Positions 3,143 to 60,815 of a DNA stretch of 64,000 nucleotides are shown here, piece after piece. Each line of letters starts with the position of its first letter. Position 1 is the first letter of the stretch. Source of the DNA: a virus. Taxonomy: Duplodnaviria > Caudoviricetes. The DNA lies in the IMG/VR virus record IMGVR_UViG_3300032038_000025, positions 53,929 through 117,928 of that record; one strand, given 5' to 3'. Made by a program: the position numbers and the translations under genes. Under the pieces are notes generated by a model. It ran no database searches. It was not told where the DNA came from and saw only the letters and a list, made by a program, of their open reading frames with translations.

Positions 3143-3571
3143 TTATTCTTCTATTCCATCTGTGGCAAATTCATGTTGTTCTAGCAATTCCGCATATGTA
3201 TTTCTTATGTGTTCAATACTAGCTTGCGCACGTTCATTTTTAAATTTTGGATGTGTGCCACAAAATTCAAGATATTCAGTTATGTTTTCAAGTGTTTGAT
3301 TCCATGATTCCATACTATGAATGCGGTTATTAACTATATCATCACTAAATTGTAGAATAGAAGCTCGTTTAGCTTTAGCCTAATTAGTGTCAATTTTATT
3401 ATCAAGTTCACTAATTTCTAAATGAATTTCATCTATTGCCCCAAGTATTTCTCTCTTCTAATCTTCTTTCTTATCTTTTCTAGCAATAAGAAATTGAATA
3501 AAATTCCAAATACCTACTGAAGCAAACATGCTTATAATACATGTTATTATTGTCTGCCACATTGGGTTCAT
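3143..3571 (-). CDS. Lysis-module membrane protein (holin-like; N-terminal TM helix), 142 aa, 2 TAG
   Basis: MNPMWQTIITCIISMFASVGIWNFIQFLIARKDKKED*KRE...DTN*AKAKRASILQFSDD...HPKFKN; SD GAAAGGTG; ends TAA; absent from the ORF track. Confidence 0.75.
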
Positions 3572-3672
3572 TAGCAATATCACCTTTCCGGGCGGGAGCG
3601 CATTAGCAACAGCCGCCCTTTAATATAATAAATTTAAGATTCATCCCTTATCTCCTGTTGCAAATATTATTA

Positions 3673-5298
3673 TCAACATTTGCTTAACCTAATTTTAATC
3701 TCTGTAAATGGTTTACCAAACCAACCTGCGGTTTGATTTCCATCACCAGACTCCCAATTGGTGTCGTGAATTTCAGAATAGTATTTGTTATTATCATAGG
3801 GTTTTACAGAATATACTGCTTCATAGTAAACCCCACCAGTTTTTGTTGTATCTGTAGTATAATAGATTTGAATAGCATCTAAACTATTAACACCATTTCC
3901 TACCCACTGTCCATTAGAGTATTTTTTAGACCAACCTTTATTGAGGTAATGAACTCTATACTGAACAGAACCAGAAGAAACATTCATTTTAATTTTAAGA
4001 ATACTGTCATTTGCTACACCTGCGGCGGCGCCGTTCTTTGCAGCTTTAAGGGTGCCGTGATTTCTTGTCTGAAGGGTGTAAGAGATTGTAGGTGCGGCGG
4101 TCGCCATTGAAGCGCTCGTATTACCAGTGGTTGTAATAGTCGTCTAAGCGGTGGTTGCCGCAGCTCCATACTTCGGACGAGCATATCCTCGAATGTTGCC
4201 ATCGCCTATTGTATAATAGCATCTTCTTACAGCATTATTACTATTTCCTTCAATAGTAACAATTGTCTTACCATTCACGGTCTCGACAATACCAATGTGG
4301 TCTGCAAAACCATCATTGGGCTGAGTAGAATCGTCCCAGTTAAAGGTAATAATATCACCCGCTTTGGGAATAATGCTTCCATCTTCATACCAAATTCCTT
4401 TAGCTTTGAATAATTGTATATGCCTTTCAACGCCACATTCTGTTCCACCAATTAGATCAGTGGCACCAGCCTTGATAAACGCAGCAGAAAGAGTGGCATC
4501 ACACCATGCATCATACATGGAAAGAGCCACACCAAGAGCGAGAGGTTTATGATTGTTGTATGTATTAATAACATCTGCATGAGCATTGGCATTGTTAATC
4601 CATCCACGGTAAACATTCAGTACCTGTTCTGCGGTCACGCCAGTTTTAGCTTTTGCTTTTGTTGTAGTCTTTGACGAAGAAGATTTCTGCGCATACTTTT
4701 TCCAGTCGGCGGCAGTGCCATAAAAAATATTGAGATCCAGATTGGAATTATATCCATTTAATCTTCCTGCGCCAGTATACTGATAGATTGCAACCTTACC
4801 AAAAGTTCCCCAACCATTAGCGTCAGTCCAAGGATTAGATTGATATCCGTATACTAAATTATGATTTGCGTATTGCGCACACCAAAGTGGGTATCCCGCA
4901 GAACCAACCGACGCCGCAAGAGGAACAATACTTTTGCTTGTATAAAGGAAAGGCTTTACACCAGAAAGTTTATAAAACTCATCCATTAAATTTTTAAGAT
5001 AAGAAATATTGTTCCAAGCACTATTTTGATAAGACTACCAATCAATAGCCATAATAGCTTTTCCAATATAATTTTTTACTTTATTATAGAAAAACTTCGC
5101 CTATGCGGCAGCTCCACCGCCACCAACATAATGATAACACCCCGCAAGTTTACCTCTATTTAGCACAGTGTCGATCTTATAAAAATCAGGATTGATATAT
5201 GTTGTACCTTGCGTTGCCTTAACAATACAAAAATCATATGGTATCTTGGTTACATCTACTGAGTTATTTGAAGAAATATCAACTCCATTTAATGCCAT
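3673..5298 (-). CDS. Endolysin: GH25 muramidase + CHAP-like peptidase + C-terminal cell-wall-binding (ChW-like) region, 541 aa, 3 TAG
   Basis: Track ORFs 5101-5298, 4144-4986 and 3673-4107 are in one frame, joined at TAG 5101, 5035 and 4144. GH25 motifs GVDIS, IVKATQG, YHY, AIDW*S, YQYT and LDLN. CHAP-like WC...GDIITFNW...DHIGIVE...IEGN. Confidence 0.9.
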
Positions 5299-5312
5299 AT
5301 AAATACCTCCTT

Positions 5313-5357: not shown

Positions 5358-5627
5358 TTAATCTAATGTCTGTGTTTTCTTAATCAGCTGATTAATGCCA
5401 GTTGCGGCAAAGCCAGATACAATGCCGATCGCAAGCGCATTAATAATATCTGCCGCAGGAAAGTCTGGCATGACAAACATTCCAATCACACCAAGAATTG
5501 CTCCTGCAACTCCCATGATAGATGGGATGCGATCGTTGTTAATCTGTGTCCACTCCTTGACAATATAGCCAATAAGATAGCAGATAATTGTAATTCCTGC
5601 AACACTAACGATACCTAAAGATTCCAT
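5358..5627 (-). CDS. Holin, 89 aa, three hydrophobic segments
   Basis: MESLGIVSVAGITIICYLIG...IPSIMGVAGAILG...AIGIVSGFAATGINQLIK; next to the endolysin; start chosen from SD AAGGGGG. Confidence 0.85.
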   Translation of the reverse strand: MESLGIVSVAGITIICYLIGYIVKEWTQINNDRIPSIMGVAGAILGVIGMFVMPDFPAADIINALAIGIVSGFAATGINQLIKKTQTLD

Positions 5628-5640
5628 AATAATATCCCCC

Positions 5641-7980
5641 TTAACTAATATATTTATAATTAACTCCTGTTTCAAAAACAGAAGTCAAATCCGTTTGTTC
5701 AACCCAAGACCCATTGACTTTCTTATAAACCGTTCTACCTTCAACCCAAGATCCGTTCACTTTAATATAAATAGTTCCAGTATTCGTAGTACAGGTAAGC
5801 ACGATATTATGTGCGGCATTGATATTCGTTAACTTATAAATATAGTTAACGACTATCTTACCAGTCTTTGAATCTGTGGTTTGTTCTTTCTCAAACACAA
5901 TTGAGTTTCCATTATCCGCACCAGTGATTTCTGCGGTCGAGTCATCTGGCACTACAACGAGCGAATAATTCTGTCCCGCAAGCCTGACTACTTGACCATC
6001 TGGATACAATTTTGCACCAGTTCCAGAAGAGGTAATGAAGTAATAATCAACATCACCAAAGACAAATATCAGACTATGTTTAGCATTGACATTGCTCAGT
6101 GTGTAAGTATATTCCCCACCGCCGCCTGTCGCTTCAATTTCAACCTTGAACTGCAATGAGTCATTACCATTATCTGTGTATTGGTCTTTAAAAAACTTAA
6201 CATCAATATAATGACTTCCTGCGCTTACTGTATAAGTTAGTTCATGTTCAGCAGTTCCGTTAATAGAAGAGCAAGCCAATTCAACATCAGACGCATCATC
6301 AGCAGAAGAGGATGTGCTAAGAGCAGTGTCTAGCTTACCGAAGATACCATAGTCATATCCTGCCTCGGCATAGTTAATATACTTGAAGGTAATGATACAA
6401 TCTGATTCCAAATTTAATGTGACTCTGGCAACAGCCGCAGAATTTGAAACGCCTTGGTTGTTTGACTCATAATACCCATTGCTGTTTACTGCGAATCCAT
6501 AGTTTGAACTTCTATTTGCAACAGAGTATGTATTTTTGGGAATGCCACCCTGTAGCTGACTAGTTATGTCAACACCATTATCAAGAGCAAGCGTTAATTT
6601 TGTCTCAGTTGGGAAAATAGATATTGTCTGATTCGTTCCTTCTTGTACACGAGTTGTGCCGTTGGCGGGATCAGTTGTTGCATTGATACTTGATATGGTA
6701 ATCGGGTAGTAAGTATATTGCGGATCTTCGTCTGGTGGAATAAATGGGCCAGACTCACCGATTGTTATAACGTGGTCTGCCGCAATTCCTGTTAACTCAT
6801 ACTCGTAATAATACTGGTCGCCGCTAGTTGGAATTTCATAAACAACTGTCCATGTTGCACCGACAACCGCACCACCATAGTAACCAATAGTAAACCGCAG
6901 TTTTGCTTCTTGTAACTCGGCTCTTGTCCAAGTTCCTGCGGTCATAGTTATTGTGGAATTAGATGTCGTTGTAAATGATGACTCACTGCCTTTTGCGGTT
7001 GAACCAGAATAAAGTTGCAAATCCGCAACCTCGCTTGAATTTGACGTACTCTCACAGTGTCCTCTGACTTGTACAGTAACAGAAGTAATCGTTGCATTTT
7101 CTGGAATACCGCTGAAGTCAAAAGAGTAATCAATGTGTGCGGTTGAGCCTTGAGAAGAACAGTAGTCACTTGAAGTGCCACCGCTAGTCTCAACGCCAAC
7201 ACCAATAGCATTTCGGTAGTTTGTGCTACTAATATTTCCGCTTGTTGTGGCATTTTCTGGATTTGCTTCAATTGTGCCGCCAGTTACAACCTCTTTAAGA
7301 ATAAGGCCGCCAGTGACATCAGTGCCATTATCTAAAACTTGAATGCCATCAAGCGAGTCGGTGTTGACCTTTACAACAGCATCGCCGCCCTCCACAATTT
7401 CCTGCGTTGCGGGTTCGGCGGTTATTCCACTCACACTACTGGTCGCAGTGATTGTATAAGCCGTGCCTTGAATAGTGTAACCAACCGTGAGTGTTGCACC
7501 ATAAAATCTGCAAATATATGATGTCGAAGTTGTAGATGATGTACCTCTTGTGACGTACAGACGAATCTTTGCATTTCGCAACTCTGCTAAAGTCCAAGAG
7601 CCAACTGATAAGGTTACTGTACTTGCATAGTTTGAAATAGTTGTTGCAGACCCTTTTGTCGTTGTTCCAGTACACATCTGCATTTGACGAGTGCTGATAT
7701 ATCTTGAACTAGTTGTACTAACATAACCTTTTGCCTGACATGCAACAGAATTAATAGTCGCACCTTCTGGGATTTTACTGGTGTCGAAGTTGTAATAAAC
7801 ATAAGTAGCAGCACCAGACCCAGTTGTAAGTACGAACTGGGCATAGCTACTACTTGTTGCATCCGTGTAGCCATTGTCAATAGGATACGAGCTACTTACA
7901 GATGCATATCTTGAATTTGTTGTATCCAGTGAGGAAGGATGAAATGTTAAGCTATTACTTACGTCTACTTGTCTTGCCAT
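5641..7980 (-). CDS. Tail fibre/receptor-binding-type protein with duplicated beta-rich domains
   Basis: 779 aa, S/T-rich. Internal duplication FDTSKIPEGATINSV / FDFSGIPENATITSV. C-terminal KVNGSWVE repeats. Confidence 0.65.
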   Translation of the reverse strand: MARQVDVSNSLTFHPSSLDTTNSRYASVSSSYPIDNGYTDATSSSYAQFVLTTGSGAATYVYYNFDTSKIPEGATINSVACQAKGYVSTTSSRYISTRQMQMCTGTTTKGSATTISNYASTVTLSVGSWTLAELRNAKIRLYVTRGTSSTTSTSYICRFYGATLTVGYTIQGTAYTITATSSVSGITAEPATQEIVEGGDAVVKVNTDSLDGIQVLDNGTDVTGGLILKEVVTGGTIEANPENATTSGNISSTNYRNAIGVGVETSGGTSSDYCSSQGSTAHIDYSFDFSGIPENATITSVTVQVRGHCESTSNSSEVADLQLYSGSTAKGSESSFTTTSNSTITMTAGTWTRAELQEAKLRFTIGYYGGAVVGATWTVVYEIPTSGDQYYYEYELTGIAADHVITIGESGPFIPPDEDPQYTYYPITISSINATTDPANGTTRVQEGTNQTISIFPTETKLTLALDNGVDITSQLQGGIPKNTYSVANRSSNYGFAVNSNGYYESNNQGVSNSAAVARVTLNLESDCIITFKYINYAEAGYDYGIFGKLDTALSTSSSADDASDVELACSSINGTAEHELTYTVSAGSHYIDVKFFKDQYTDNGNDSLQFKVEIEATGGGGEYTYTLSNVNAKHSLIFVFGDVDYYFITSSGTGAKLYPDGQVVRLAGQNYSLVVVPDDSTAEITGADNGNSIVFEKEQTTDSKTGKIVVNYIYKLTNINAAHNIVLTCTTNTGTIYIKVNGSWVEGRTVYKKVNGSWVEQTDLTSVFETGVNYKYIS

Positions 7981-7993
7981 TTAATCACACCCC

Positions 7994-9925
7994 TTACTGT
8001 TTAATCCAGATGTCACCATCATTGCCGCCTGAAGGGGAAGCACTTGAAACCGTGACAGTGGAATATGTTAATGCCACATTCACACTGGCGAGATTGGTAA
8101 CATCTACTGTACCATTTGCGGTAATTGTCTGACTGCCGCTTACTAATTCACTTGCGGTCACCGTCACCGCAGTACCATATTTCGTTCCACCGCTGATATA
8201 ACCAGTGGTATTTGTCACGCTCGGTGTCACTGTGATTGAGTGATTGCTCACCGTTCCTTTGCTTGCGGACGGCGTTCCCGCTGAACCACTCGCAACAGAT
8301 TTTGTAGCTTGTGCAGAATAGTATCCTGCGGGTACAGTAACTGTTGCGCCACTTACCGTAAGATCATCGCCGTCTCTCTGGGTAATTCCAGAACCAACAT
8401 AGGTAGAACTAATTGCACCAACCTTCACGATGCCTGTCGTATAAACTCCTGCGGCAACCGCATTTTGTTCAGACTCGGTTGGAGTGACTGTTTTCGCCGC
8501 CTGTGTTGTAAGCTGAAGAGTTCCAGTTGTTGTTCCTGCGCTAACATATCCTGCCGCCTGTGTGTGACTTGCCGTCACAAGGCCAGTAGTAGAGTTGACA
8601 GAAGCAGTTGGATTAGCATGAGTTGCAGTTGCCACTGATTTAGTTTCCTGCTCCGCATAGTATCCAGATGGCACGGTGATAGTTGCGCCAGAGGCGGTGA
8701 GATCCGTCTCATCTCTCTGAGTGATATCAGAGCCTACATATGTCGATGAAATCGCTCCCACCTTCACTACACCAGTGGTATACATGCCAGAAGCAACTGC
8801 GGTCTGCTCACTCTCAGTCGGTGTGACAGTTTTTGCGGCTTGGGTTGTAAGCTGTTGAGTAGCTGAACCACTCACAGTAATCGTCCCCGCTGTTCCCGCA
8901 CTCACATATCCTGCGCTCACCGTTGGTGTGACGCTCTTTGTTGCCGAAGCTGTCGCAGTAATCTTACCATCTGAACCAACACTAATGGTTGGGTTTGCAG
9001 TAACTGTTGTTGCAGGAGTTGTTGCGCTACCAGAAGGCATTGCATTAATCTGAACACTAGAAAGACCATCATAACCAGAGTCGGCTGTGATGGTCTGACT
9101 TGATGTTGTTGGATTAATGTTGGTTTTTGCTTGGAGAGATGGAGCAGAAGAGGAGACATTAACATTAGCACTCGCATAATTCGTTACATCATGCGTTCCG
9201 TTCGATGTAATGTTGATTGTTCCTGTGGGGGTGATGCCACCACTTGTATCTCCATCATATGTTGTAATTACTTCACCAGTTTCATAATGTATTAATTTAA
9301 CTGTTGTGTTGGTCGCAAGATCTTTCATAAATCCGGCTGATGTCATATCTATATTAACAAAAGCTGTTATATGTAAACCATCTGTGCTACCAACGCTATT
9401 AACTGTAATTCCCGGAGGTACTGGACAATCATTTCTATAGTAACCGGCACCACTCCAATATGGCCCACCAAATCTACCAAGAACTAATTCTGTTAAGTTA
9501 GTATTATTAAAAACATAATGTTGCGCTTCAAAATAATCAACGGAAGACCCTTGATAATACACAGAAGTTGGCGCTAAAATTAATCGTTTTAAATTTGGGT
9601 ATTTTTCAATAGAAAATTGATTATTACTGCCGCTAGAATAAAAGGTCTGGCCAGCACCAGTTTTTATAACTTTTCCAGTTAATGTTAAATTAACTAAATG
9701 TTCCATATTGCCATATGTATTAAGCGCATCATAAGAATACTTACCACCCATATCAATAATCATGGTTTCAGTATACTTCTTACCAGTGCTAGATGTATAT
9801 ACGGTCTCGCCACTAATAGTATCTTCTTCTCGTCTATATGTTAACACATTTCCGCCATTGTCGGTGGCCTTGAAGCCTGCGACATTTGTAAATTCTCTTC
9901 CGAATATTTGTAATGTATCGCTCAT
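7994..9925 (-). CDS. Tail fibre-type protein with T/S/A-rich internal repeats
   Basis: 643 aa. Two copies of LTTQAAKTVTPTESEQ..YTTG.VKVGAISSTYVGS.ITQRD..DLT.SGAT.TVP.GYY. C-terminal PSGGNDGDIWI. Confidence 0.6.
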   Translation of the reverse strand: MSDTLQIFGREFTNVAGFKATDNGGNVLTYRREEDTISGETVYTSSTGKKYTETMIIDMGGKYSYDALNTYGNMEHLVNLTLTGKVIKTGAGQTFYSSGSNNQFSIEKYPNLKRLILAPTSVYYQGSSVDYFEAQHYVFNNTNLTELVLGRFGGPYWSGAGYYRNDCPVPPGITVNSVGSTDGLHITAFVNIDMTSAGFMKDLATNTTVKLIHYETGEVITTYDGDTSGGITPTGTINITSNGTHDVTNYASANVNVSSSAPSLQAKTNINPTTSSQTITADSGYDGLSSVQINAMPSGSATTPATTVTANPTISVGSDGKITATASATKSVTPTVSAGYVSAGTAGTITVSGSATQQLTTQAAKTVTPTESEQTAVASGMYTTGVVKVGAISSTYVGSDITQRDETDLTASGATITVPSGYYAEQETKSVATATHANPTASVNSTTGLVTASHTQAAGYVSAGTTTGTLQLTTQAAKTVTPTESEQNAVAAGVYTTGIVKVGAISSTYVGSGITQRDGDDLTVSGATVTVPAGYYSAQATKSVASGSAGTPSASKGTVSNHSITVTPSVTNTTGYISGGTKYGTAVTVTASELVSGSQTITANGTVDVTNLASVNVALTYSTVTVSSASPSGGNDGDIWIKQ

Positions 9926-9940
9926 CAGTTAGCCACCTCC

Positions 9941-10834
9941 TTAATTATTTATTGCCGTTCCATCGGCGTATTGTGTCTCGTATATTGATCCTTCGATGGG
10001 AAGGATTTGATTATTTGAATTTTGTGTTAAAAATGTAGACCAATTATTAGCGGACTGATAAGAAGATATGAGCGCAGATGGGACATAAAGTGTACCGCCA
10101 GAACCACCAGAGGCAAATTGCCCACAACTTGTCCAGCCATTCATTCCATCTAGTGTTGAAACTCCAGATGTTCTTCGTATTATTATTGTATGAATAGGAA
10201 AGGTATTATTCATTCCATTAAAAACCCAACCAGAAAATCTAGAACAATTATTTCCCAAATCAATAATCTCTCCTCTAAATGTAGAAAAGATATTTGTTCC
10301 TGCTAATGTAAGTGCAGGAAGAACAACTGCTTTTACAGCAGTATTATAAAAAACTTGTTGTCCAGTAGCTGTTACCTTTGGAAAAATGCAACTTGCTAAT
10401 TTTGGACAATCAGCAAAAGTTCTCATGTTTAGATAGGTAAGTTCAGGAAAAGAAACATTAACCAAATTACTACATTTACTAAATGCGTATTCTCCGCATG
10501 TCGTTACATTTGGGGCAGATATAGATGTTATATTTGCATCATTATAAAATCTATAGTCTTTAATATATGTTACATTCGTTCTTATATCTCCAACGGGTTC
10601 TACGCCAGAAATATAATCATCAAGTGAGTACATTAACTTTCCACTGCCCATTCCATCCTTATCCAACACCAAATACCCATCCGCATCCTGCGTCACTTTG
10701 CCAGTAAATATTCCATCCACCGCCGCCTTCATCTGAGCAATCGTCATAGGAAGGTTTGCGCCAGACTTCTCAGATATACTAACTGCAAGACCATCAAGTT
10801 TTGTTTTTGTTACAATTAATTTTTCGTCTGCCAT
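9941..10834 (-). CDS. BspA-type leucine-rich-repeat (LRR_5) tail-associated protein
   Basis: GEYAFSKCSNLVNVSFP, TFADCPKLASCIFP, LYVPSALISSYQSANNWS. Confidence 0.7.
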   Translation of the reverse strand: MADEKLIVTKTKLDGLAVSISEKSGANLPMTIAQMKAAVDGIFTGKVTQDADGYLVLDKDGMGSGKLMYSLDDYISGVEPVGDIRTNVTYIKDYRFYNDANITSISAPNVTTCGEYAFSKCSNLVNVSFPELTYLNMRTFADCPKLASCIFPKVTATGQQVFYNTAVKAVVLPALTLAGTNIFSTFRGEIIDLGNNCSRFSGWVFNGMNNTFPIHTIIIRRTSGVSTLDGMNGWTSCGQFASGGSGGTLYVPSALISSYQSANNWSTFLTQNSNNQILPIEGSIYETQYADGTAINN

Positions 10835-10849
10835 AAGACCCTCCTTTCA

Positions 10850-12664
10850 TTAACGTGCTACTAATGAAGCCTCATAGTCTGAAGCCTTTATAATTCTTGT
10901 TACTAAAGTTGTATTATTCCACGGTGCAGTTGCAATCCACGTATCATATAGTGCATCGGGGACAACAATTTTTTGTTTTGTATTACTATTTAAAATAAAG
11001 GCATTTGCGTTATCAAGAGTTGGAACAGCAGTATGATCTCTAAAATCAACTACACATAAATGAAAACATTCTCTAAATGTATCGGTAGGAATCGTTGTAA
11101 TACTTGCGGGAATTTTTATATAATTTAATGCAGTATAACAATATCCAAAATATGGCATATATGTACAATTAGTAAATGTAATATTAGATGGGTCTAAATT
11201 CCAACAGGTAGACGCAAAATTCTGTACATTAGTTTTTGTAACCAGCTTAGGAAGATTAATATTTGCTTTTATAGTTTGTAACGCTGTGCAGTTAGAAAAC
11301 ATTGTTTTAATTGTTGTTGCGTTTGTAAAACTAAAATCTGAAATATCTATTTCCTTTAATAAGGTACATTCTTGAAACATTGCCTCAAAATTAGTTACGC
11401 TTGAAGTATCCCAATTTTTATTTCTTATTATCTTTTTCAATGATCTACAATATTGAAACATATATCCAAAATTAGTTGCTTTATTTGAAACATTAAAATT
11501 ACTTAAATCAATTTCTTTAAGAGAAATGCACCCAGAAAACATACTATTATAATTTTGAACATTATCAGTTATAAAACCACTTAAATCTAAATGTTCTAAA
11601 TGTCTGCAATAAGAAAACATTGAATTAAGATAAATTAATACAGTGGTAGTCTGCCATTTAGAAGAATTTAAATATCTTAAATTATAATCATTAGAAAACA
11701 TACTATCCATGCGGGTCGCCTTTGTAAAATTAAAATCTTCAATACCTTTTATTTCACAAAGACAAACACAATCTTTAAATGCTCCATCAAATCTTATTAC
11801 ACTGCTTGTATCCCATCCACTTAAATCGAGGTTTACAATGTTTGAACAGTTTTGAAATATGCCTGTTAAATCAGTACATTTATTGCTTACATCATGTGGA
11901 AGATATATTTCTTGTATAGACGACATAAAATAAAACATATACTGCAAAGATGTTATATTTGCAAAACTGCAAATAGACAAATCTACATATCTTAATGATT
12001 TATTTCTTACATGTCTATATGAATTAGAACAATTACCATTTGGCTTTGCATTCATTACAGTGTCAGCAACCGTTAAATGTGTAATCCAAGAATCACTAGT
12101 ACCAGCTATATAATTTGAAGTAGGGAAAATAGCAGTATGGTTTGGCATATTACAATATCTTTCCACGCATGGCTGATCTGTAGCTCCATAAGTATAACTT
12201 GAGTCTTCATCTGCCATATATGAAAATCTAAAACTAGTTATACTTGAACCACTCTGAGGAGTAATTTTATAAACTACATAATCTCCTTCATCTGTTGGTA
12301 AAGTTTGCTGAAATACCGTATTACTGTCTTGATCAGTAGAAAATACAGATGTAAATATTCCGTTATTTAACGAACCACGTTCTACATGATATGCACCTAC
12401 CACTTTAATGGATATAAAATTATAAGTACCCACTCCATATGTGCAGTCATATGTCAAATAAATAACCTCCTGATTAGTCAAATCCACTTTGGAGTAGTCT
12501 GGCCAATCAGAAGGTCTTTCCCATTTCTTAACTCTTACATTATGCAAATCTTTAATTGCTTCGTCCATCTCACGAGGTTTGTATGTTGCGGTTTCGCCGT
12601 TCCGATCTCTGATCGCATCCGCAATATTCGTAAAGACGCTGTCATCTATATATACTTTACTCAT
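10850..12664 (-). CDS. BspA-family/DUF285-like ~26-residue repeat adhesin
   Basis: Repeated LDLSGWDTSSV..F..MF..C..L units; N-terminal IADAIR motif; C-terminal IVVPDALYDTW. Confidence 0.75.
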   Translation of the reverse strand: MSKVYIDDSVFTNIADAIRDRNGETATYKPREMDEAIKDLHNVRVKKWERPSDWPDYSKVDLTNQEVIYLTYDCTYGVGTYNFISIKVVGAYHVERGSLNNGIFTSVFSTDQDSNTVFQQTLPTDEGDYVVYKITPQSGSSITSFRFSYMADEDSSYTYGATDQPCVERYCNMPNHTAIFPTSNYIAGTSDSWITHLTVADTVMNAKPNGNCSNSYRHVRNKSLRYVDLSICSFANITSLQYMFYFMSSIQEIYLPHDVSNKCTDLTGIFQNCSNIVNLDLSGWDTSSVIRFDGAFKDCVCLCEIKGIEDFNFTKATRMDSMFSNDYNLRYLNSSKWQTTTVLIYLNSMFSYCRHLEHLDLSGFITDNVQNYNSMFSGCISLKEIDLSNFNVSNKATNFGYMFQYCRSLKKIIRNKNWDTSSVTNFEAMFQECTLLKEIDISDFSFTNATTIKTMFSNCTALQTIKANINLPKLVTKTNVQNFASTCWNLDPSNITFTNCTYMPYFGYCYTALNYIKIPASITTIPTDTFRECFHLCVVDFRDHTAVPTLDNANAFILNSNTKQKIVVPDALYDTWIATAPWNNTTLVTRIIKASDYEASLVAR

Positions 12665-23094: not shown

Positions 23095-23610
23095 ATGTTA
23101 CATATTTATATAGATGGAAGTTGTCGCGGGAATGGTTATAAAGATTCTCGAGGCGGGTTCGGGATAGTAATATTTGACAACCGCCGCAATTTAATTGATG
23201 CCTATTGTTAGCAATTTGATAATGTAACAAATAATCAAATGGAATTAAAAGCATTCCTAAAAACATTTGAATTACTAAATACAAAATATAAAAATTAGGA
23301 AGCAACTATTTATTCTGATTCTGCATATTGTATAAATATCCTCACTTCATGGATTTACTCTTGGAGTAAAAATAATTGGAAAAATAGTAAACATGAAACA
23401 ATAAAAAATTTAGATATTATTTTATCTATATATAAATATTATAATATAGATTTTTTTATAAATCAAATAAATTTTATAAAAGTTGATGGTCATAATGGAA
23501 TTATAGGTAATTAGTTAGCGGATGCTCTTGCAACGGCAGACAAATTAAAATTTTCAAATATTATATTACAAAATCATATAAACATTAACCTTTTGGAAAA
23601 AACTTGCTAA
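23095..23610 (+). CDS. rnhA: Ribonuclease HI, 171 aa, 3 TAG
   Basis: IYIDGSCRGNG, TNNQMELKA, IYSDSAYC, KVDGHNGIIGN*LADALA; TAG at 23209, 23296, 23512; absent from the track. Confidence 0.9.
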
Positions 23611-59923: not shown

Positions 59924-60234
59924 AGCTATTTTTGCAATTCATTCATTAACCCTAAACACTAAAAAATCGTTCTTCTATAACATGAAAAATCTTCTTTTTT
60001 GGTTAATGAATAAAGACCCTCCAATTTATTTATCAATGAAAAAAAAGTTTCTGAAGAGTTATTATTTAATAACCTTTGTAATCCAGATAATTCTTCTAAT
60101 ATTGTTTGTAATGGTTTCTGCCAATCTGATCCCTATTCTCGGCTAGGAAGTAATTTATAAATTTGATTTAAAAGATTTTGCAGTCTATTCTAAACAACTG
60201 AATCATCTATATTTATATTATATTTTAATATCAC
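59914..60234 (-). CDS. Hypothetical neck-region protein, 106 aa, 4 TAG
   Basis: GTG start; IYKLLPSRE*GSDW...KLEGL...YRRTIF*CL. Confidence 0.7.
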
Positions 60235-60815
60235 TGCTATCGCCCCTCTCTAAAATCAACGAGGTCTTCAACAGTGTGTTTAACTGGAGTTCTTAATAAA
60301 CCAAAAGTAGATCTCATAATACCCTTTTGATCTGGGGCGCGCCGCTTATAGAGCCTTTGAAGATGAAACCCTTCTCTTTCATAATCCTTTTTTAATTGAA
60401 GAAGTTTTTGCATATGATTAGCTTGAGAAGTAAATTTAAAATCAGACCCGCTATATTTCATCCTAGTATTTTCAACACTAGCTAATTGTTGGCTTAACCA
60501 TTCAACAATCATATAAGTTGATAAAATATTGATTTCTTCATGTGTTAATTGATTATTAAAATAACCTCCACCATAAATAATAGCGGTAACGGTCTAATGA
60601 TCACTTTCTGCCCCTTTATAAGTTTTTTCATCTGCAATCTCAAAAAACTCATAATCATTTAAATTAATTCTAGGAAATTCAAACTTTTCAATTGCTGAAA
60701 GCAATAATTCTTCTAACATTCTAAATGTATCAAGCTACGTCAGTTCTAAATACATATCATCGGTAATTTTTGAAAGAAAGGAGTCATATACAAGTGAAAA
60801 TGAAGTTGTATTCAT
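60231..60815 (-). CDS. Putative head-tail adaptor, 194 aa, 3 TAG
   Basis: SD AGGAGG; TSFSLVYDSFLSKITDD; DFKFTSQANH; ends GR*Q then TGA overlapping the next GTG. Confidence 0.7.

Follow-up and report, generated by a model that had tools for sequence, protein, structure and literature searches.

How can a phage make a working endolysin from a reading frame that TAG interrupts three times, once at the position expected to hold the catalytic glutamate of its muramidase domain? This question is raised by a gene in a window of 64,000 nucleotides, which belongs to a 117,928-base virus record. The record would represent a phage of at least 118 kb that probably infects gut or rumen Bacillota. The best explanation, and very probably the correct one, is that the gene encodes an intact endolysin in a phage that reads TAG as Glu; Glu insertion is inferred from comparison, and no protein-level evidence supports it. 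In this view, the phage tRNA(CUA) would be made and then charged with Glu by a host enzyme (charging by GluRS is inferred), and the ribosome would insert Glu at codon 88 to give a normal D-x-E active site. Without tRNA(CUA), translation would end at codon 66. The positions of the TAG codons, the alignment with the catalytic Glu, the Glu codons in standard-code and recoded relatives, the match between TAG and Glu across the genome and the clade, and the presence of the tRNA were shown directly.

The endolysin gene and its catalytic glutamate position

The endolysin gene (window 5298..3673, minus strand) contains 541 codons and a TGA stop, and its product has full-length homologues at 75-87% identity. 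A Shine-Dalgarno motif, AAGGAGG (5306..5312, minus strand), was read from the sequence 7 nt upstream of the ATG. The reading frame is broken by TAG alone, at codon 66 (context GGAAA[TAG]AKFF; 5103..5101), codon 88 (AIDW[TAG]SYQ; 5037..5035), and codon 385 (4146..4144), all on the minus strand. The last of these falls in an Ala/Thr-rich linker that joins the CHAP domain to the C-terminal domain; its column varies among the aligned homologues and is thus uninformative on the code. Read with table 11, the gene yields a stub that stops after 65 residues. The preliminary description, made from the sequence alone, had placed TAG at codons 66 and 88 with a third before the binding domain, and had stated that the standard code gives only a 65-residue stub; both claims held, codon 385 being the third TAG.

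A GH25 muramidase domain occupies residues 6-182 (4753..5283, minus strand). It was matched by Pfam PF01183 with an E value of 1e-20 and 75 bits (cut-off 27), and the match spans both N-terminal TAGs. An AlphaFold (AF2) model of the endolysin, built with Glu at the TAGs, has a pLDDT mostly of 81-98 over residues 1-200, with a dip to ~56-58 at residues 141-160. The top Foldseek matches of the model were 1JFX, 2WAG, 4KRU, and Cpl-1, with 4JZ5 and 3HMC also found (probability 1.0, target-normalised TM 0.68-0.76). The CHAP peptidase domain follows at residues ~220-380 (4159..4641, minus strand); Pfam PF05257 covers residues 299-352 (32.3 bits against a cut-off of 26), and the pLDDT is mostly >85. 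Its invariant columns are C266, H334, E350, and N352, of which C266 and H334 are invariant across 18 homologues. The C-terminal domain (residues ~400-541; 3676..4101, minus strand) is presumed to bind the cell wall. Its fold is unknown: a Pfam search gave no match, and the AF2 pLDDT is <50. This domain of ~140 aa is kept in nine homologues, three of which carry a different N-terminal GH25 subtype, and it is conserved in P0002-P0009. A search of IMG/VR with the endolysin returned no relatives; the best cellular matches (Lachnospiraceae, Eubacterium, Blautia) reach ~42% identity and are too distant for a host call. In all probability, the endolysin is an intact lysin with two enzymes, the GH25 muramidase and the CHAP peptidase, followed by a C-terminal domain whose fold is unknown; this conclusion lacks protein-level evidence.

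Like the solved GH25 enzymes (cellosyl 1JFX, Psm 4KRU, 2WAG, and Cpl-1 1H09/2IXV), the domain shows the fold, D7, and the D-x-E motif, present here as D86-W87-[TAG]88. Unlike them, it has its catalytic Glu and a second conserved Glu written as TAG, and it is combined with CHAP and an unknown C-terminal domain instead of choline-binding or SH3 repeats. In HMMER alignments, codon 88 fell on the Glu of D-x-E in 2WAG (B. anthracis GH25), 4KRU (phiSM101 Psm), 1JFX (cellosyl), and 5A6S (CTP1L). In 4KRU, D101/E103 have been named catalytic, along with the 'conserved GH25 DXE motif' (PMC7954357); the 4KRU SEQRES numbering in our alignment is offset by 11 from that of the paper. The earlier assignment of codon 88 to the catalytic Glu was thereby borne out. 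The motif is complete only when TAG is read as Glu, a reading that the comparative evidence makes very probable in the absence of protein evidence. An E-to-Q change at the GH25 catalytic Glu is known to inactivate the enzyme. The claim that Gln insertion would inactivate this lysin rests on that knowledge and on the Cpl-1 E94Q mutant, a substrate trap seen in complex with a peptidoglycan analogue (title of PDB 2IXV); the inactivity of E88Q is therefore inferred here. Translation with table 15 turns the catalytic acid of the endolysin into this classic inactivating change.

D-x-E is present in all 38 GH25-bearing homologues of a 45-sequence alignment; rows that seem to lack it, such as YDIEE and YDLEW, are merely shifted by one column. 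Homologues are thus not commonly dead at codon 88, an outcome that the preliminary description had named as a possible refutation. At the column of codon 66, 33 of 37 homologues carry Glu and 2 carry Gln. The five closest homologues (P0002-P0006; full length, 75-87% identical) have Glu at both positions. Codon 88 was checked at the DNA level in only one of them, P0002, which is encoded by a 92 kb ENA contig (ERZ12302817 NODE_222, here L001), where codon 66 reads GAA and codon 88 reads GAG. L001 is a temperate phage that uses the standard code: among its 29 called genes, TAG is the stop of one and never stands in frame, and its endolysin translates by table 11. P0002 resembles the endolysin in identity over the full length (86-87%), in its three domains, and in its holin and tail-gene neighbors. 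L001 differs in having GAA/GAG at the TAG positions, in using TAG as a stop, and in carrying an integrase. Between the two GH25 domains, 183 of 200 residues are identical at 77% nucleotide identity, with pN 0.068 and pS 0.806, which indicates strong purifying selection on GH25.

The TAGs at codons 66 and 88 are thus best regarded, with high confidence, as synonymous replacements of GAA and GAG. The Glu-type codons of the endolysin are 7 GAA, 4 GAG, and 3 TAG. Since 3 of 14 are TAG, the chance that TAG falls on any given Glu is ~21%, and its landing on the catalytic Glu is not beyond chance. The TAG at codon 88 is probably a neutral synonymous change under TAG=Glu, and adaptation has not been demonstrated.

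TAG codons across the genome

With TAG treated as sense, a greedy gene set of 128 genes covered 91% of the record. These genes end in TAA (107) or TGA (21) and never in TAG, and as delimited they contain no in-frame TAA or TGA. In-frame TAGs number 361 and occur in 60 of the 128 genes. They were compared codon by codon, by tblastn, with 27 related IMG/VR loci, among them five complete relatives (130-144 kb, four with terminal repeats), and with one ENA relative. Likelihoods were calculated using empirical profiles from the same alignments.

Relatives could be aligned at 293 of the 361 TAG sites, 288 of which had a sense residue opposite. The codons opposite TAG were GAA (494), TAG (312), GAG (138), CAA (124), GAT (109), and AAA (105), and at 108 aligned sites TAG is present in relatives as well. 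Over all 288 sites, the plurality residue was Glu at 115, Asp at 30, Gln at 25, and Lys at 23, with a log-likelihood of -701 for Glu and -849 for Gln. When only HSPs of >=60% identity were used, 81 sites remained; Glu was the plurality residue at 45, Asp and Gln at 7 each, and Lys at 6 (Glu -160, Gln -254). At the 33 sites where >=4 relatives agreed at >=90%, Glu was found at 24, Gln at 4, and Asp at 3; under the same >=90% criterion, true Glu sites were 96% Glu and true Gln sites 92% Gln. Each of the five complete relatives, used as the query in turn, also placed Glu far above Gln. As a control, the method was applied to phAss-1, a distant relative with a published TAG=Gln code (PMC10607447); here Gln was best (-118.7 against -127.7 over 48 sites).

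A second conserved position was found in the RNase H gene (window 23095-23610, plus strand), where TAG codon 140 (23512..23514, plus strand; GN[TAG]LADALA) aligns with the Glu of the human RNase H1 and E. coli RNase HI segments GNEEADRLA and ENERCDELA. GAA occupies this position in all five relatives. In the module common with L001, four of five alignable TAGs face Glu codons. Composition gave weak support: Glu plus TAG makes up 7.6% of residues in TAG-bearing genes, and Glu makes up 6.9% elsewhere. Taken together, it is very likely that TAG means Glu in the phage and its clade, on comparative evidence without evidence from protein. The expectation under code 15 that TAG sites correspond to Gln in homologues was not met. 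The earlier claim that the muramidase needs both suppression and specifically Glu is supported. All three refutation checks open to computation came out in its favor (codon 88 aligns with the catalytic Glu, homologues keep D-x-E, and GH25 is under purifying selection), and TAG=Glu follows independently from the genome-wide comparison; activity itself is inferred.

Several other genes added little. Comparison of RecJ and RuvC with PDB entries gave nothing useful on TAG sites, no HExxH motif with a TAG occurs in the gene set, and two TAG-rich proteins of 1059 and 1524 aa had one weak relative locus or none. A protein alignment of RecJ showed many Gln residues at TAG columns. This signal was rejected: the collection translates relatives with TAG=Q, and their DNA mostly has TAG. 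The public protein collection (L039:10001-11779; P0122 onwards) stores the proteins of relatives with TAG=Gln and so presents spurious Gln at TAG columns. Separately, in eight genes a TAG falls among the final four codons and is soon followed by TAA or TGA (e.g., window 60231-60815, minus strand). Such near-terminal TAGs might be relics of former TAG stops; their count is not clearly above the ~4-5 expected by chance.

The suppressor tRNA(CUA)

ARAGORN identified 21 tRNAs at 10.7-19.8 kb of the genome, one of which is a tRNA(CUA) (genome 14367-14438; Rfam tRNA, 55.9 bits). It lies 39.5 kb before the window, directly after tRNA-Asp. Its ends are C1-G72 and A73. Its D arm has a GUC/GAC stem with U11-A24 and a GGUUAA loop, and its variable loop is 4 nt long; the D arm is like that of Firmicute tRNA-Glu and unlike that of the phage's own tRNA-Gln (GCC/GGC). 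The elements by which GluRS knows tRNA-Glu are U11-A24 with the augmented D helix, the lack of nucleotide 47, the acceptor pairs, and the anticodon U34/U35/C36. Of these features, U11-A24 and a 4-nt variable loop are present, the acceptor end C1-G72/A73 is atypical of tRNA-Glu, and the anticodon is CUA. All annotated BLAST matches in the phage collection are tRNA-Glu, and the best, from Enterococcus phage phiSHEF13, likewise follows tRNA-Asp. Next to another tRNA of the same cluster, just before tRNA-Gln (genome L029:17956-18058), a weak Rfam match to a YrlA Y-RNA-like element was noted (30.5 bits, E 0.002; gathering score 69).

Suppressors of the relatives were located by Rfam tRNA matches together with ARAGORN. 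Each of the five relatives has a homologous tRNA(CUA) that adjoins tRNA-Asp or tRNA-Glu and precedes tRNA-Met. The stems differ among the six suppressors, and C1-G72, A73, and U11-A24 are kept in all of them. The suppressor of one relative, G003, has tRNA-Trp as its BLAST match; the ancestry suggested by BLAST neighbors is thus ambiguous, being Glu for the phage's tRNA and Trp for that of G003. Beside the tRNA(CUA) of another relative, ARAGORN reported a tRNA with the anticodon UUA, which would read TAA (L034; G001:85000-93000).

The suppressors of phAss-1 are built differently. Two of the three have a clearly weak first pair (A1-U72, U1-A72) and G73, as in tRNA-Gln, whereas those described here have C1-G72 and A73; the third could not be confidently parsed. 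One phAss-1 tRNA(CUA) of 88-91 nt (L157:12445-12532; OQ749652 62445-62532) carries an insert after the anticodon stem and stands in tandem with one of 72 nt. Bacterial GatCAB is reported to read the first acceptor pair (U1-A72 versus G1-C72) and the D-loop (PMC2811023). GlnRS is known to need a weak 1-72 pair and G73. Because of these acceptor-end requirements, the C1-G72/A73 end should close both routes to Gln; the exclusion of tRNA(CUA) from GlnRS and GatCAB is inferred, as is its charging. No genes for GluRS, GlnRS, or release factors were found in the 118 kb record, which is ~88% complete. In the absence of a GluRS or GlnRS gene from the record, charging would have to be done by a host enzyme.

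A bolder reading, which we consider likely, is that a natural TAG=Glu code operates in the phage and in at least five complete relatives (130-144 kb), carried by a tRNA(CUA) that C1-G72/A73 keeps from both Gln routes. On that reading, the TAG-written Glu88 would be a proof built into the genome, and protein sets made with TAG=Gln would mis-state hundreds of residues per genome.

Rival readings, known codes and the lysis module

The main rival is ambiguous decoding, in which TAG is read mostly as Glu and a fraction as Gln, either because GatCAB amidates part of the charged tRNA or because GlnRS mischarges it. It would imply that TAG sites tolerate both residues and that only part of the endolysin molecules are active in GH25. 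This reading seems unlikely and is not excluded. In its favor, Glu predominates less at TAG sites than at true Glu sites (Glu plurality 56% versus 80% at high identity), and a mixture model assigned 57-66% of TAG sites to a Glu-like class, ~10% to a Gln-like class, and small shares to Asn, Lys, Asp, Tyr, Ser, and Leu. Of the strongly conserved TAG sites, 4 of 33 face Gln. In addition, CAG makes up 0.16 of Gln codons in TAG-bearing genes versus 0.30 in GC3-matched TAG-free genes, a depletion not shared by AAG and GAG, whose shares are equal in the two sets (0.15-0.16). Among phage codons facing a TAG of a relative, CAG has the highest per-codon rate (6.3%; GAA 4.7%).

Against ambiguous decoding, the non-Glu portion is not confined to Gln and also includes Tyr, Ser, Lys, and Leu, which, like Gln, are single-base neighbors of TAG. 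For this reason, the non-Glu sites are probably recent mutations into TAG at tolerant positions, with CAG to TAG being an easy transition. CAG-to-TAG transitions tolerated where TAG is read might explain both the loss of CAG and its frequent pairing with TAG; the depletion is explained only in part. Furthermore, the C1-G72 pair should block GatCAB (PMC2811023), and TAG occurs at catalytic or motif Glu positions in GH25 and RNase H. In the other direction, counting against a pure Glu reading, one TAG of the non-Glu kind was seen in another lysin-like gene (340 aa, 7 TAGs), which lies outside the window (L031:2208-3230, genome 42208-43230, minus strand). This gene combines a GH25-like N-terminus, whose D-I-E is spelled with ordinary codons, with the C-terminal domain found in the endolysin, and opposite one of its TAGs (ISYTI[TAG]T) members of the endolysin family carry Gln, Lys, or Arg.

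A simple TAG=Gln code (code 15) is very unlikely. It would make the GH25 domain a dead E88Q module, perhaps kept for binding, with CHAP performing lysis. It can draw on the intact Cys/His pair of CHAP, on public protein sets that already translate the relatives with TAG=Q, and on the literature searched, where code 15 is the sole TAG reassignment reported for phages. Against it, Glu is ahead by 147 log-likelihood units genome-wide and also leads in each of the five relatives, and the same method does return Gln for phAss-1. The five closest homologues have Glu at codon 88 (GAG in L001), no GH25 homologue lacks D-x-E, and GH25 is under strong purifying selection. A broken gene (a pseudogene, or an assembly or sequencing error, with the TAGs as true stops) could be suspected from a single metagenomic contig without reads, but it is all but ruled out by 361 in-frame TAGs with no in-frame TAA or TGA, Pfam domains that run across TAGs, 108 TAG sites shared with relatives, and a tRNA(CUA) that is present and conserved.

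TAG=Glu thus remains the preferred reading, and under it the phage still resembles the phages of code 15 (crAss-like, Lak, and Garnet phages; Borges et al.; phAss-1) in many respects. Its TAGs cluster in structural and lysis genes, it encodes its own tRNA(CUA), TAA and TGA still act as stops, and otherwise intact genes carry in-frame TAG; the idea that recoding delays late and lysis proteins applies here as well. The difference lies in the residue, which is Glu instead of Gln. In the literature searched, Gln was the only residue described for recoded TAG in phages; the isotypes predicted for the suppressors were Gln, Trp, Ile, and Tyr, with Glu absent from the list. That literature, from which most subscription journals were missing, held no account of TAG=Glu in phages or bacteria. 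The nuclear code of peritrich ciliates (NCBI table 30) reads TAA and TAG as Glu. The phage shares TAG=Glu with it; unlike that code, which is eukaryotic and reassigns both codons, the phage keeps TAA as its main stop (107 of 128 genes) and uses a virus-encoded tRNA. If the reading is true, TAG=Glu is a new natural code for viruses of bacteria, and gene callers that apply table 15 enter Gln at positions that are Glu in the protein, catalytic residues included. The endolysin offers a direct test of the code in the form of a small domain, one residue, and a simple lysis assay. The preliminary description had called it the cleanest functional test, and this held in the sense of a potential one-residue test.

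It had also proposed a lock on premature lysis. A delay in the expression of lysis genes by their recoded stops has been suggested before (Borges et al., bioRxiv 10.1101/2021.08.26.457843). Without the suppressor, any of the three TAGs truncates the endolysin, and one is enough for a lock. None of the five closest relatives has TAG at codon 88; all have Glu there. Since any TAG truncates and these relatives lack this one, there is no sign of selection for TAG at codon 88. The lock is therefore plausible only; a role of the TAGs in timing lysis is a possibility that is inferred and untested.

The neighborhood bears on this idea, since the lysis module is common with a standard-code temperate phage and its TAGs are found only in the endolysin and the gene downstream. 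That gene (146 aa; 3143..3583, minus strand) has two TAGs, opposite which L001 has GAA (site 42) and GAG (site 68). The holin gene (5358..5675, minus strand, from the ORF list) lies just upstream of the endolysin and has no TAG; its L001 counterpart, which matches Pfam Phage_holin_5_2, is 92% identical. The endolysin has 3 TAGs to 11 GAA/GAG, whereas the holin and four tail genes have none to 86 (Fisher p = 0.002, post hoc). These counts would fit preferential recoding of the lysin, a tentative view given that the comparison was made post hoc. The block formed by the holin and the four tail genes (window 5358-12664, minus strand) has a GC content of 36-44% versus ~30% and contains no TAG, and its proteins are 63-95% identical to those of L001. 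It may be a module exchanged between phages with different codes.
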